Of a DNA stretch of 64,000 bases, positions 1,336-64,000 are shown piece after piece. Positions within the stretch are counted from its first letter, which is position 1. Each line of letters starts with the position of its first letter. A program made the position numbers and the translations under genes. The notes under the pieces are model-generated. The model made no database searches. It was not told where the DNA came from and saw only the letters and a program-made list of their open reading frames with translations. Source of the DNA: Candidatus Hadarchaeota archaeon (GTDB taxonomy: Archaea; Hadarchaeota; Hadarchaeia; Hadarchaeales; JAGGTB01). The stretch is taken from positions 1 to 64,000 of the forward strand of contig CAYLJV010000006.1 in assembly GCA_964384105.1 (NCBI GenBank). Reading direction: 5' to 3'.

Positions 1336-2172
1336 ATTTTATCAAGAAGAATCATCCCTTGTTTAGACTGTGACTTAGCAGTGCCCGAGGGCCGGGTTGT
1401 GAAAGGAATAGAATTTAAAGAATTAAAGCCTGCAGGTCAGCCGGCAAATCTTGCTGAAAAATATTACGAAGAGGGGGCAGATGAAATAGTCTTCTTAGAC
1501 ATAACTGCTAGTTTAGATCGAAGAGAGACAATGGCTCACGTAATAGAAAGAACTTCACAAAATGTATTTATTCCCCTAACAGCAGGTGGTGGAATCAACA
1601 AACTAGATGACGCTAGGCGTCTTTTTAATTCAGGTGCTGATAAAGTCACAGTAAATACGGGTGCTATAAAAAATCCCTCTCTTGTTAATGACCTTTCTAG
1701 TAGATTTGGAAGCCAAGCATGTGTAGTCGCTGTTGATGCAAAGAGAAGACGGCTTACTTCTTCAGACTATCGAAAGAATAGAGTTATTATGGAAGATGGT
1801 CCAAACAGTTTTTGGTTCGAATGTTCTATATATGGGGGAAATAAGTTTACGGGAAAAGACGCAATCGAGTGGATTAAAGAAGTTGAAAAGAGGGGGGCAG
1901 GCGAGATTTTACTAACTAGTATGGATCGTGATGGTACTACAGATGGATACGATATCCTACTGAATAAGAAAGTTAGCGAGGAAGTGAATATACCCGTTAT
2001 TGCTTCCGGGGGTTGCGGTAGACCTGAACATATCCTAGAGGTCTTTGAGGAAACAGAGGTTTCTGCAGCCTTGGCAGCTAGCATTTTTCATTACGACCAA
2101 TATAACATTCAAGAAGTTAAAGAATATCTCGATAAGAATGGTATATCGGTCCGTAAGCCAATATTAGGGTGA
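1336..2172 (+). CDS. hisF: imidazole glycerol phosphate synthase, cyclase subunit
   Basis: GADEIVFLDIT, TSMDRDGT, IASGG, ALAASIFH. The conserved RIIPCLD lies upstream of the track's GTG (1381), so the start is placed at ATT 1336 (start uncertain). Confidence 0.95.
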   Translation: MLSRRIIPCLDCDLAVPEGRVVKGIEFKELKPAGQPANLAEKYYEEGADEIVFLDITASLDRRETMAHVIERTSQNVFIPLTAGGGINKLDDARRLFNSGADKVTVNTGAIKNPSLVNDLSSRFGSQACVVAVDAKRRRLTSSDYRKNRVIMEDGPNSFWFECSIYGGNKFTGKDAIEWIKEVEKRGAGEILLTSMDRDGTTDGYDILLNKKVSEEVNIPVIASGGCGRPEHILEVFEETEVSAALAASIFHYDQYNIQEVKEYLDKNGISVRKPILG

Positions 2173-2248
2173 ATACAATATTATCAGAAACTTTTTTGAG
2201 TTCTGCCAGAATATTATTCGTACAAAAAAGTTCAGTTAGGGTGAGATT

Positions 2249-3118
2249 ATGAGCTTGGACAAAGAATATTCCCGTCCGCTTTACGAGCGATCTACACGCC
2301 ATAAAGTAAGAAGAAAAGAGAGACTAAATCCTAAAACCAGTTTAATCGAAATCGAAGCTCCATTGATCGCCAAAAAGGTTAAGCCTGGACAGTTTATAGT
2401 GATTCGCCTTCATGAAAAGGGTGAAAGAACACCCCTGACTGTTTTCAAAAGTGATTCCAAAAAAGGTACTATTACGATAGTCTTCTTGAAAGAGGGAAAG
2501 ACCACAAAGGAACTGGACAAATATGAGGAAGGAGATGAACTAGCAGATGTTATAGGTCCAAATGGGAATCCAATTGATGTAGAAAAAGTTGGGACTGTAG
2601 TCTGTGTGGGTGGTGGAGTAGGAACACCTGGAATATATCCAATAGCTAAAGCCTTGCGTGAAGTGGGTAATACTGTAATTGGAATCATAGGTTTCGCGAA
2701 TAAAGAGACCGTAATCCTCGAGGATGATATAAAGGAAGTGACGGATGAATTTTACGTTACTACAGACGACGGTTCGTATGGGCAAGAGGGGTTCACCTCT
2801 GACGTGTTGAAGAAGCTGATCGAAGGGGGTAGAGATATTGATTTAGTTTACGCTATTGGGCCTACTATTATGATGAAAGTTATTTCGGATTTAACTAGAC
2901 CTTATGGTATCAAGACTATGGTCAGCCTCAATCCCATAATGGTTGACGCAACGGGGATGTGCGGATCTTGTAGAGTTAAAATCGAAGGTGATATGCGATT
3001 GACCTGTGTTGATGGCCCAGTATTCGATGGTCATAAAGTTGACTTTGAAGAATTAATGAACAGGCAAAGGTTATTTAGAGAAAAGGAGGCGGTCGCACTT
3101 GACAGGCTCGAAGAATAA
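2249..3118 (+). CDS. sudB: NADH-dependent ferredoxin:NADP+ oxidoreductase small subunit (NfnS/SudB-type)
   Basis: PGQFIVIR...[24 protein letters not shown]...CVDGPVFD [2Fe-2S] motif. Confidence 0.92.
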
Positions 3119-4484
3119 GGAGAAAAAGAGTATTTCAGTTCCCGAAAGGGATGTAGAAGAGAGGGTAAATGATTTTAAAGAGGTTTCTTTAGGATATGAT
3201 TCCGAATTGGCTGAGAAAGAAGCAGAGAGATGTTTGCAATGTCCATCTTCGCCCTGTATCAGGGGATGTCCTGTTGATGTGGATATACCGGGGTTCATCG
3301 ATCTGATCTCTGAAGGTAAGTACAAAGCTGCTTATGATCTTTTGAAAGAAGATAACGCTTTACCCGTCATAACGGGTAGAGTCTGCCCACAGGAGGTACA
3401 ATGCGAAGCTAAATGTACTATAGGCAATCAAGGTGAACCAATAAACATAGGGAAGTTGGAGAGATTTGTCGCGGATTATGTCCGAGAACATAATTTAGAA
3501 GAGATCCCCCTAATAGAGAGAAAGAAAGACAAAAAAGTCGCAATAATCGGATCGGGTCCCACAGGTCTTGCGTGTGCAGAAGATTTAGCGAAAATGGGGT
3601 ATAAAGTGGTAATTTTTGAAGCTTTGCATAAACCTGGGGGTGTTCTTCGTTATGGTGCACCTGAATTCAGACTGCCTAATGACACAATTGATCACGAACT
3701 AGACTTATTGAAAAGAACGGGAGTTGAAATCAAAGTAAACATGATCGTGGGCAGAACCATAGATTTTGATGAATTAAAAGAAGAATATGATGCCATATAC
3801 ATCGCTACAGGGGCGGGGGCACCTAGATTTCTTGGAATAGAAGGAGAGGATCTAAATAATGTATTTACAGCGAACGAATTTTTAACAAGAATCAACTTGA
3901 TGAAAGCACATAAATTTCCCGATTATGATACGCCTGTCCCGGAACTAGATAAGGTGGCGGTTATTGGAGGAGGAAACGTTGCGGTGGATGCAGCTAGATC
4001 CGCTTTGAGATTAGGAGCCGAGAGTCATATAATATATCGTAGAACCGGTGAGGAAGCTCCAGCTAGGGACGAGGAGATCCAGCATGCGAAGGAGGAGGGA
4101 GTTTTGTTTGAATTTCTTAGAAGTCCGGTAGAATTTATAGGGGAAGACGGGTGGTTAAAATCTATAAAATTTGTTAAAATGAAACTTGGAGAACCCGACG
4201 AATCGGGTCGGGGAAGACCCATTCCAATTGAGGGCTCAGAATATGTGAAAAAATTTGATGGAGCAATAATAGCGATAGGACAGAAACCAAATAGGATATT
4301 CTATCAGAATGTTCCTAACTTAAAAGTGAAGGATTGGGGTGGTATTATTGTCGATGAAAATCTCGAAACTACTATAGAGGGAGTATTTGCAGGGGGTGAC
4401 GCTGTTTCAGGTACATCAACAGTTATTCAAGCTATGGCTGATGGTAGGAAAGCTGCAAGCTCTATCGCTAGATACTTGGAATAA
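3099..4484 (+). CDS. sudA: NfnL/SudA-type large subunit (GltD-like)
   Basis: [51 protein letters not shown] start overlaps sudB. Confidence 0.92.
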
Positions 4485-4633
4485 ATGAATGAGACAATTT
4501 ATCCCTAAAAAATTAGTGTATTATTCTGCAATTCTTTTTTCAGTGACAATTTATAGAAAAACAATAAATAGCAACTAAGGGAAACCAGAAAGGATACCCA
4601 CCGCTAGTTTAACAAATAAATTCGTGTATTCAT

Positions 4634-62458: not shown

Positions 62459-62788
62459 ATGGCGGAAGAGAAAGAAAGCGAGGGTATTGAAAGGGAAAAC
62501 TCTAGAGAAAAATTAGAAGAACTCGTAGGAAGAATGTAGAACATGTCCAACGGAGAAACCACTAATCAACTACCCGGTTCTCTAGTGGGTTTGGGCCAAT
62601 AAGTGGAAACAAAAACAAACAAAGAGATTCTGAAAATAAAACCCTGATCCGAGAGATAAATCAAATAAATAGATGTTAAAGAAATAAAGAATTGTTTTAA
62701 CGAACTTGTGGAGATCTTAAAAGCTGAAAAAGGGCAGTCCTCATCAGAAAATCTGAAGAACTTACACCTCAAGGAAACCCATAAATAG
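62459..62788 (+). pseudogene. possible decayed ORF of unknown family
   Basis: protein-like K/E-rich frame from an ATG, interrupted by five in-frame stops. Confidence 0.3.
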
Positions 62789-62832
62789 TATGAATTGAGA
62801 AAAGGACGACCTAGAGAGAAGGTGGTCAAACA

Positions 62833-63114
62833 ATGACTAATACTGAACAAATATGTGCCGTTCCTGGATGCGAAAATGAGCTTACGGAAGAACAACAAGG
62901 AAAAAGAATAGTGATATGTTCCGGCTGCGAAGCAGCAAAGATGCATATCTGCGAAGCCTGCGGAAAGAAAATAAGTGTAAACAGGATTCAAGATGGAGCA
63001 ACTCTATGTACGCAGTGCGAAATGAATCCCTCTGATTTGGACCTAGAAGAAGAAATGGAATCCGAACTCTCGGATTACGAAATGGAATCCGAACAAGAAG
63101 ACTTCATGGTTTAA
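62833..63114 (+). CDS. Cys-rich zinc-finger protein with acidic tail
   Basis: CAVPGC, CSGC, CEAC, CTQC, then an E/D-rich C-terminus. Confidence 0.7.
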   Translation: MTNTEQICAVPGCENELTEEQQGKRIVICSGCEAAKMHICEACGKKISVNRIQDGATLCTQCEMNPSDLDLEEEMESELSDYEMESEQEDFMV

Positions 63115-63211
63115 AATCAATTTTGCATTGTTCCGTAACCAATCGTACAGGAAAAACCGGTACCTAAGAAGATTTAATAAATTAAATACGAAGACCATAG
63201 CGGGTGAAAAA

Positions 63212-64000
63212 ACGTACGAAGTAACTTCGCCAGGACAAATCTTCCTTTTTGGGGAGCACGCGGTTGTTTATGGGGAGCCTGCTTTAGCGGCCGCAATAAA
63301 CATCCGAACTAAGGCCAGGTCAGAAGCCAATGAAAATAAAAGATTCAGAGTTTTTTCCGAAAGAATAGGCAGGTTAGAAGGAAAAGTTAAGAAAGAGAAT
63401 GGCACTTGGAAAATAATAGATAGAGAAGGAGACTTAGAAGAACTTAATTTTGTAACAAAAGCAGCGGAAATTACCTTAAACTATGTTAAAAAAGGAGAAG
63501 GTATTGACCTAGAAATAGAATCAAAATTACCTTCAGGATCAGGCTTGGGAAGCTCCTCCGCCGTAACTACGGCTACTATCGCTTCTGTGTCTCTCGCACT
63601 TGAAGAGAGATTAAACAGAAAAGAAATTTCTCAACTCGCATTCGATACAGAAGTTGCTATACAAGGTGCGGCAAGTAAAACTGGTGTAAACGTTGCAAGC
63701 TATGGGGGATTTCTAAAAATTGAAAGAAACGAGATGGAAAGATTAAGAACTGCTCCCGAACTGAAAATAGTGATCGGATATACCGGAAAATATGGCAACA
63801 CCGGAGAATTAGTTAGGAAAGTCAAAAAATTAAAAGAATCCCGACCAAAAATTATTGAGCCTATAATCGAAACCATCGGGAAATGCACCGAATCTGGAAT
63901 TAACTCTTTAAGAAAATCTGATCTTCAGAAAGTCGGCGCCTTGATGAACGCAAATCAAAACCTTCTTGAAGGTCTTCAAGTCAGCTCACCTGAACTCAGA
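63212..64000 (+). CDS. mevalonate kinase-like GHMP kinase (runs off the window; not in ORF track)
   Basis: PGQIFLFGEHAVVYG, LPSGSGLGSSSA, QGAAS, NQ.LL..L.VS.PEL; start uncertain (ACG 63212 after GGGTGA, or TTG 63128). Confidence 0.85.

Follow-up and report, generated by a model that had tools for sequence, protein, structure and literature searches.

In the accessible parts of two reviews of archaeal translation, AUG, GUG and UUG are the only archaeal start codons named (PMC7531240; PMC4705826). The second of these, in the portion available, describes a well-defined departure in bacteria: infC, which encodes IF3, starts with AUU and is autoregulated via IF3's own proofreading (PMC4705826). 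In the accessible text of a ribosome-profiling study of Haloferax, near-cognate codons account for about 30% of the putative alternative initiation sites, and were excluded from further analysis (PMC7261190). Here we analyse a stretch of 64,000 nucleotides (positions 1-64000 of contig C6; hereafter, the window) from a Candidatus Hadarchaeota metagenome-assembled genome (MAG; G000, 1.62 Mb in 12 contigs, 40% guanine-plus-cytosine (GC), 90% complete), in which a sequence-only reading had proposed ATT, ATA or ACG start codons behind good Shine-Dalgarno (SD) sites in seven genes. Sites of this type are, in our judgement, very probably genuine SD-anchored translation starts at near-cognate codons, and they are found across the lineage. 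The observation is confirmed and also widened: such codons are a recurring feature of the order, a few of them conserved in essential genes. In the literature covered (subscription journals and supplements fell outside its scope), we found no report of the trait for Hadarchaeota, nor of such codons as main starts in archaeal genomes.

These starts resemble canonical archaeal starts in that they share the same anti-SD and the same spacing in a setting where TTG is common; they differ in lying outside the AUG, GUG and UUG of the reviews, as far as their accessible parts go. The likeness to infC is that the genes are SD-led, that the codon is one base from AUG, that the initiator tRNA is the presumed reader and that certain genes conserve the odd codon. 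Moreover, in one family of the order (f3), the gene for initiation factor aIF1 itself starts with CTG, which mirrors a fidelity factor with a poor start. On the other hand, the present system is archaeal, with aIF1 and aIF2 and without IF3; it involves at least 1.5% of genes; most cases turn over between orthologues; and any feedback would be conjectural. Eukaryotic non-AUG initiation and the poor-context autoregulation of eIF1 offer a further parallel, through membership of the SUI1 family (eIF1/aIF1) and a near-cognate set of ACG, CUG and AUU. In our case, however, the SD sets the position, with no scanning or Kozak context, and each codon is the principal and sole start of a conserved protein, rather than that of an upstream open reading frame (ORF) or an N-terminal extension.

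Proposed start codons of seven window genes

The 3' end of the 16S rRNA, encoded on the window's own contig, reads ...GATCACCTCCT, and therefore the SD consensus is AGGAGGTGATC. We define aligned spacing as the number of bases from the mRNA base pairing with the last consensus base (C) to the start codon. Canonical SD matches of at least 5 bases, measured for ATG codons near ORF 5' ends, peak at an aligned spacing of 2-5. At 512 canonical starts anchored by orthology, 34% have an SD of at least 5 bases and 16% have one of at least 6 bases; TTG accounts for 108 of the 512, in agreement with the earlier remark that many genes start with this codon. The genes in question, together with one paralogue, are as follows:

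1336..2172, forward strand: hisF, proposed start ATT at 1336-1338.
13695..14432, reverse strand: pgi, cupin-type glucose-6-phosphate isomerase, proposed start ATT at 14432-14430.
40728..41009, forward strand: winged-helix (HTH_45) gene, wHTH, proposed start ATA at 40728-40730, SD GGAGG at 40718-40722.
40258..40521, reverse strand: divergent wHTH paralogue, ATG start, protein beginning MTRSK.
44562..44981, forward strand: DsrE2-like gene, dsrE, proposed start ATT at 44562-44564, SD AGGAGG at 44549-44554.
63212..64000, forward strand, continuing past the window: mevalonate kinase (GHMP kinase), proposed start ACG at 63212-63214.
14487..14900, reverse strand: OsmC-like gene, osmC, possible start ATA at 14900-14898, SD GGAGGTG at 14912-14906, alternative GTG at 14894.
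9830..11341, reverse strand: periplasmic-binding-protein gene, SBP, possible start ATT at 11341-11339 after GGGGGTGA.

All seven odd codons lie where the sequence-only reading had placed them, each behind a match to the genome's own anti-SD; the aligned spacing, in part assessed by eye, is 2-4 in six of them and 0 in wHTH. Family searches also bear out the gene names (His_biosynth, cupin-type GPI, HTH_45, DsrE/DrsE_2, OsmC, Peripla_BP_6 and GHMP kinase). The alignment of orthologue N-termini that had been recommended as a check was run: the proposed codon matches an orthologous start exactly for hisF, wHTH, dsrE, osmC and mevalonate kinase, and it is at most 3 codons off for pgi, while SBP gave one distant relative. 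For hisF, pgi, wHTH and dsrE, the Pfam models start 5' of the first canonical codon. It had been claimed that in these four genes the conserved N-terminus cannot come from any canonical codon; that is upheld for hisF (first GTG at residue 16), pgi (first ATG at residue 23) and wHTH (first TTG at residue 13), but only partly so for dsrE, in which a TTG at residue 7 would cost just six residues. A conserved N-terminus without any canonical supplier also applies to mevalonate kinase, and not to osmC or SBP. We consider the predicted starts of hisF, pgi, wHTH, dsrE and mevalonate kinase to be solid, that of osmC to be ambiguous and that of SBP to be weak.

The SD of hisF is a weak GGAG (1323-1326) inside the 3' end of hisH, the stop codon of which (TGA, 1330-1332) is in the hisF frame; the ATT comes 3 nt after that stop, with TGA AGG alone between. 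This ATT aligns exactly to ATG (six), TTG (one) or GTG (one) in eight orthologues, and a ninth has its ATG one codon upstream; in G009 there is an ATG at the aligned position. Position 1 of His_biosynth corresponds to residue 5 of hisF, and initiation at the GTG would cost 15 residues that include RRIIPCLDCDL, a block kept in all relatives. A HisH-HisF fusion through read-through of the TGA was rejected as unlikely, because relatives carry hisH and hisF in other frames or spacings. The hisF junction, with the third start base as N, had 0 exact-pattern matches in a scan of metagenome contigs.

The pgi gene has its SD (AGGTGAT) at 14444-14438 and an in-frame TAA at 14438-14436, two codons upstream of the ATT. 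In the seven pgi orthologues (7/7), a canonical start lies no more than 3 codons from the aligned position. Each orthologue also retains L(E/K)FG...R..A.DM, a block that in G000 sits upstream of the first ATG; position 3 of the Pfam GPI model falls on residue 19. In wHTH, the ATA aligns to ATG (three) or TTG (two) in five of seven related loci, one of the others having an ATG a codon upstream and one being unaligned; HTH_45 position 2 is residue 3. The paralogue said to begin MTRSK is indeed present, at 40521 on the reverse strand. As had been described, the ATT of dsrE overlaps the TAA of the upstream gene. It aligns exactly to ATG (two) or TTG (two) in four of five same-genus orthologues, while the fifth has an ATG 7 codons upstream; position 2 of Pfam DsrE is residue 4, and the TTG at residue 7 is a possible alternative start.

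For osmC, the ATA aligns to the GTG start of the sole orthologue found, and the OsmC model begins only at residue 33; whether the start is the ATA or the GTG two codons downstream is ambiguous. SBP is the weakest of the seven cases: its one distant relative (30% identity over 60 residues) has an ATG two codons downstream of the aligned position, and in-frame GTG and ATG codons exist upstream of the ATT.

The mevalonate kinase scores 194.7 bits against NCBIfam TIGR00549 (cut-off 163), even though its sequence is truncated here. The ACG follows an SD match, GGGTGA (GGTGA at 63203-63207), and a TATA-like element, TTTAATAAATTAAATA, lies at 63173-63188. Among the seven genomes of this genus (g1: G000 plus its relatives G001-G006), an ACG occupies the same position in six (G000, G001, G002, G004, G005 and G006), G003 having ATG; these ACG codons are 4-5 bases downstream of GGGTG(A/T). 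In three ACG-bearing relatives, there are zero canonical codons from the upstream stop to the ACG. Outside the genus, five orthologues have canonical starts. The ACG has been kept at 48-60% protein identity, and ACG represents just 14% of Thr codons in G000, which argues for selection on the codon itself. There is an in-frame TTG at 63128, upstream of the promoter-like box; this far-upstream codon is disfavoured as a start, because the TATA-like box that lies downstream of it is conserved among relatives.

Probable near-cognate starts of rpoK and aIF1

The following gene lies outside the window:

C2:163290-163490, reverse strand: rpoK of G000, ATT at the start position.

This position, five codons before the Tyr of YTRFEKA, is occupied by ATT in G000, G006, G007, G008, G010, G014, G017 and G020, by ATA in G001 and G011, and by ATG in G002, G003 and G004; thus 10 of the 13 genomes of families f1, f3 and f4 have ATT or ATA, and the other 3 have ATG. 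In 8 of 20 genomes, no canonical codon exists between the upstream stop and YTRFEKA (in G011, the contig ends before the stop). Taken alone, rpoK of G000, G001 and G006 is ambiguous, because an in-frame GTG sits within the SD itself; G000 has an ATG there too. Among 80 metagenomic rpoK loci, 79 have an upstream stop, and 17 of these 79 have none of the canonical codons up to 25 codons from the motif. Of the 17, the four most similar (65-69% identity) have GGGGG and then, at the corresponding position, ATT or ATA. In a group at greater distance, two members (L244 and L249) begin TAG AAC ACG TC..., and several others show ACG at the same position; the hint that this group belongs to Thermoproteota (Atlas) comes from two members only. 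The public record of the protein encoded at L244:377-631, one of these rpoK loci, has residue 23 as its first residue (a Val read as Met) and is missing the TRFEKAR motif.

The aIF1 gene starts with ATG in 16 genomes, G000 among them. Family f3 has a CTG in G014, G017 and G020, and no canonical start in G010; in G017 and G020, a GTG lies three codons downstream of the CTG. An infC-type near-cognate start on the fidelity factor's own gene is therefore seen in family f3 only, and is absent from G000 and the 15 other genomes.

That the ATT/ATA of rpoK, the ACG of mevalonate kinase and, within one family, the CTG of aIF1 have been held for a long time suggests selection for a set expression level; these three are candidate translational set-points.

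Near-cognate codons across the genome and its relatives

For a genome-wide view, we counted the in-frame codons that follow the upstream stop and precede the first canonical codon by 12 nt or more. An SD of at least 6 bases at an aligned spacing of 2-5 precedes 8 of 575 ATT, 4 of 580 ATA and 2 of 136 ACG codons, as compared with 40 of 13589 non-near-cognate codons; many of those 40 directly adjoin ATT/ATA sites. All of the proposed codons are one base from ATG: ATT, ATA and ACG in the window, with ATC and CTG elsewhere. The aligned spacing is 2-4 in 10 of the 11 near-cognate sites listed for G000 (the SD of hisF being of 4 bases only) and 2-3 at most near-cognate sites, and several of the relatives' sites have SDs of 9-10 bases at aligned spacing 2. 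At sites identified by orthology alone, 5 of 9 have an SD of at least 6 bases, versus 16% of the 512 canonical starts (binomial P = 0.008).

The orthologue-pair test compared stop-to-stop ORFs from relatives' stretches with all G000 ORFs, using the best-scoring frame per place. An unfiltered first screen had been swamped by conserved antisense and off-frame ORFs; the best-frame filter was used instead. A pair was flagged if at least 6 residues aligned, with at least 3 identities, upstream of the first canonical codon. Rows were dropped if the alignment ran into the SD of a normal start, or if the ORF was an antisense shadow or lay over rRNA. TrpD of G000 was one of the flagged candidates to be dropped: it has a normal TTG behind GGAGGAGA. 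On the G000 side, 9 of 598 different ORFs were real (1.5%, from five of six sets, the G012 set having given no new gene), a value that is a floor because the test misses genes with a canonical codon within five codons. The counts on the relatives' side were:

Same-genus stretches G001, G002, G003 and G006, 42% GC: 4/171; a MetE-like ATT and a rubrerythrin-like ATA (both G006), a CTG (G001) and the mevalonate kinase ACG (G002).
G008, 55% GC: 6/153; four CTG, one ACG and the rpoK ATT, the rpoK case being common to G000.
G007, 54% GC: 1/219; a CTG.
G017, 49% GC: 1 clear and 1 possible/188; a CTG after GGAGGTGAT.

The mevalonate kinase ACG of G006 was seen in the alignment, yet was not flagged by the filter. 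The relatives' gene names MetE-like, rubrerythrin-like, AOR-like, Tmk, NuoB-like, RibB and ABC ATPase are motif readings. The choice of near-cognate codon follows base composition, with ATT/ATA at 40-42% GC and mostly CTG/ACG at 49-55% GC. The trait spans several families of the order and is not special to G000. There are also reciprocal cases, in which G001, G006, G007, G008 or G017 has ATT, ATA, CTG or ACG where G000 has ATG or TTG. One such control lies in the window:

30189..31190, reverse strand: MetE-like gene (motif reading), ATG in G000.

Its G006 orthologue has an ATT exactly at the position of the G000 ATG, behind GAGGTG.

Further cases in G000, outside the window, are:

C4 95701, ATT: short-chain dehydrogenase, aligned to an ATG of G009; adh_short position 1 at residue 6, first canonical codon 10.
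C5 11186, ATA: HhH-GPD gene, first ATG 108 codons downstream; model position 1 at residue 32, first canonical codon 109.
C1 98098, ATT: PurS; model position 2 at residue 6, first canonical codon 10.
C3 47518, ATT: ATP-cone/Mrr protein, behind GGTGA; ATP-cone position 2 at residue 2.
C2 46285, ATA: HcyBio, aligned to a GTG of G008; model position 1 at residue 21, first canonical codon 29.
C1 274654, ATT: ZIP, without an SD.
C2 246128, ATC: LPG_synthase_TM; model position 1 at residue 17, first canonical codon 52.
C1 618904, ATC: Pyr_redox_2; model position 3 at residue 5, first canonical codon 37, with GxGxxG 30 codons upstream of the latter.
C7:28707-28907, reverse strand: archaeal histone, ACG at 28907; its 89%-identical paralogue (C7:10081-10278, reverse strand) has ATG.
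C2:183475-183915, reverse strand: 146-codon ORF, ATT at 183915 after GAGGTG, with a strong coding signal.

The 146-codon ORF contains zero ATG, GTG or TTG codons anywhere; its one family match, to DUF7210, is weak and below the cut-off. As regards leaderless initiation, SDs are present at most sites; those without a clear SD include the ZIP-like ATT, the AOR-like CTG of G008 and the CTG of a FAD enzyme.

Several of our observations weigh against reading these codons as genuine starts. The SDs of hisF, HcyBio and ZIP are weak or missing, and canonical codons lie close to the starts of osmC, dsrE, a CMD-family gene, a cupin gene and the rpoK of G000. When the SD threshold is relaxed to at least 5 bases there is no clear excess (18 of 575 for ATT versus 397 of 15973 overall). 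The rates are also uneven, with 0 of 159 in G009 (55% GC) and 0 of 187 in G012 (56% GC); they cover G000 and its Hadarchaeota relatives, and the flagged orthologue rows were curated by eye. Furthermore, Sulfolobus aIF1 rejects AUU in vitro, according to the accessible parts of two papers (PMC4705826; PMC6237735).

A different interpretation is that these are decaying starts, and that the proteins are made in truncated form from downstream canonical codons, or not at all. Most cases are confined to one genome, as this would lead one to expect; the ACG of the histone gene stands against an ATG in its 89%-identical paralogue and an ATG or GTG at, or adjoining, that position in all 23 related loci of other genomes; and a canonical codon follows 2-8 codons downstream in osmC, dsrE, the CMD-family gene and the cupin gene. 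We nevertheless judge decay to be improbable. The stretch from the odd codon to the first canonical codon is open and conserved as protein, and it holds essential motifs: the start of the hisF barrel, the Rossmann GxGxxG (in the short-chain dehydrogenase and Pyr_redox_2) and 77 residues of HhH-GPD. The mevalonate kinase ACG and the rpoK ATT are conserved across genomes, and the SDs are at optimal spacing. Nor did we see the broken frames or lost upstream conservation of pseudogenes in these genes; their frames are open, and their N-termini are matched by Pfam models from positions 1-3 onwards.

An error of sequencing, assembly or consensus also has to be considered, given that G000 is a 12-contig MAG of 90% completeness. 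We find this scarcely credible: the same odd codon recurs in independent genomes that are 48-85% identical, the trait appears, at different genes, in other MAGs, and the changes cluster on SD-led start codons, rather than being random. The comparative evidence strongly suggests that the near-cognate codons are used for initiation.

Initiation machinery, proposed mechanism and gene annotation

The earlier proposal of relaxed start-codon selection stands to the extent that SD position appears to set starts at codons one base from ATG, which align with orthologous starts and have SDs that are stronger than average. Its suggested cause, altered fidelity of aIF1 or aIF2, was not borne out by the evidence from aIF1, the initiator tRNA and the t6A enzymes. 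An aIF1 gene (PF01253) occurs in every genome, 21 of 21 (the G000 copy is at C3:58112-58420). On inspection, its sequence is intact: both the zinc knuckle and the aromatic-Gly-Lys of loop 1 are preserved, and the protein can be aligned end to end with the solved aIF1 of M. jannaschii. In all seven g1 genomes, loop 1 has Thr/Ser, as (K/E/Q)R(T/S)FGK, in place of the Arg/Lys of other genera; this is the position of R31 in P. abyssi. In the accessible text of an in vitro study, the R31A mutation of P. abyssi aIF1 weakens its 30S affinity from 12 to 84 nM (PMC6237735).

A lineage-specific relaxation of fidelity, in which an altered aIF1 or aIF2 would proofread near-cognates less and such starts would accumulate, draws on that Thr/Ser substitution, on the weakened 30S binding at the matching position in P. 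abyssi, and on seemingly lower rates in G009 and G012 than in g1 and G008. It seems to us unlikely. The genus loop change does not follow the trait, and we reject it as the cause, because G008, with an ordinary KRKFGK loop, has the highest near-cognate rate (6/153); G007 shares that loop, yet has 1/219. The rest of aIF1 is well conserved, and rpoK without a canonical start also occurs in metagenomic lineages that are only 52-63% identical. An odd initiator tRNA was likewise rejected, since the usual A1:U72 and three G:C pairs (GGG/CCC) in the anticodon stem are present, as was a loss of t6A enzymes: Kae1/TsaD and Sua5 (for t6A tRNA modification) are both encoded.

We also noted that the sole tRNA with a CAU anticodon in G000 is initiator-like, and contains a 57-base intron (C8:35433-35567, reverse strand); ARAGORN detected neither an elongator tRNA-Met nor a tRNA-Ile with a CAU anticodon in this genome, which is 90% complete.

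We therefore return to near-cognate initiation that is anchored by the SD. The position of each codon, its alignment with orthologous starts, its conservation and the strength of its SD are direct observations. As for mechanism, pairing of the SD with the 3' end of the 16S rRNA would place AUU, AUA, AUC, ACG or CUG in the P site, in which initiator Met-tRNA (Met-tRNAi) may pair with two of the three bases; the protein would then begin with Met, and probably be produced in lesser amounts than from AUG. Near-cognate starts may arise by a single-base change of ATG, GTG or TTG, and would be tolerated given a strong and well-spaced SD, or translational coupling of the gene to the preceding one; most turn over between orthologues.

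If these starts are used, the tolerance of near-cognate codons in archaea in vivo would be far above that anticipated from the textbook set of AUG, GUG and UUG and from the rejection of AUU by aIF1 in vitro, and the order would offer a natural system in which to study the trade-off between SD strength and codon-anticodon proofreading. There are also consequences for annotation. In the accessible description of Prodigal, ATA, ATT and CTG are ignored as starts (PMC2848648); near-cognate genes will be truncated or missed by callers of this type, because only ATG, GTG and TTG are allowed. Canonical-only calling would cost hisF its 15 conserved residues and the HhH-GPD gene 108, and metabolic reconstructions and protein-family alignments based on such MAGs inherit the truncation errors. 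A broader proposal, one that we advance tentatively, is that Hadarchaeales, and perhaps many uncultivated archaea, regularly start 1-4% of their genes at AUU, AUA, AUC, ACG or CUG, including the essential rpoK, mevalonate kinase, an apparent thymidylate kinase (assigned by motifs only) and hisF; that the conserved cases may act as translational set-points; that the CTG of f3 aIF1 could provide a feedback like that of the infC AUU; and that such genes may be truncated or lost in the annotation of archaeal MAGs.

Two minor observations concern neighbouring sequences. An Hsp20-like ORF of 77 codons (motif reading), at 48276-48510 on the forward strand of the window, lacks an SD, and its first 36 codons contain no canonical start; this ORF is possibly a remnant. 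Separately, several G001 C1 ORFs match only internal parts of longer G000 genes (FeoB-like, GuaA-like and HMG-CoA-reductase-like, by motif readings), an indication that genes of the G001 MAG are split or frameshifted, or that its assembly has errors.

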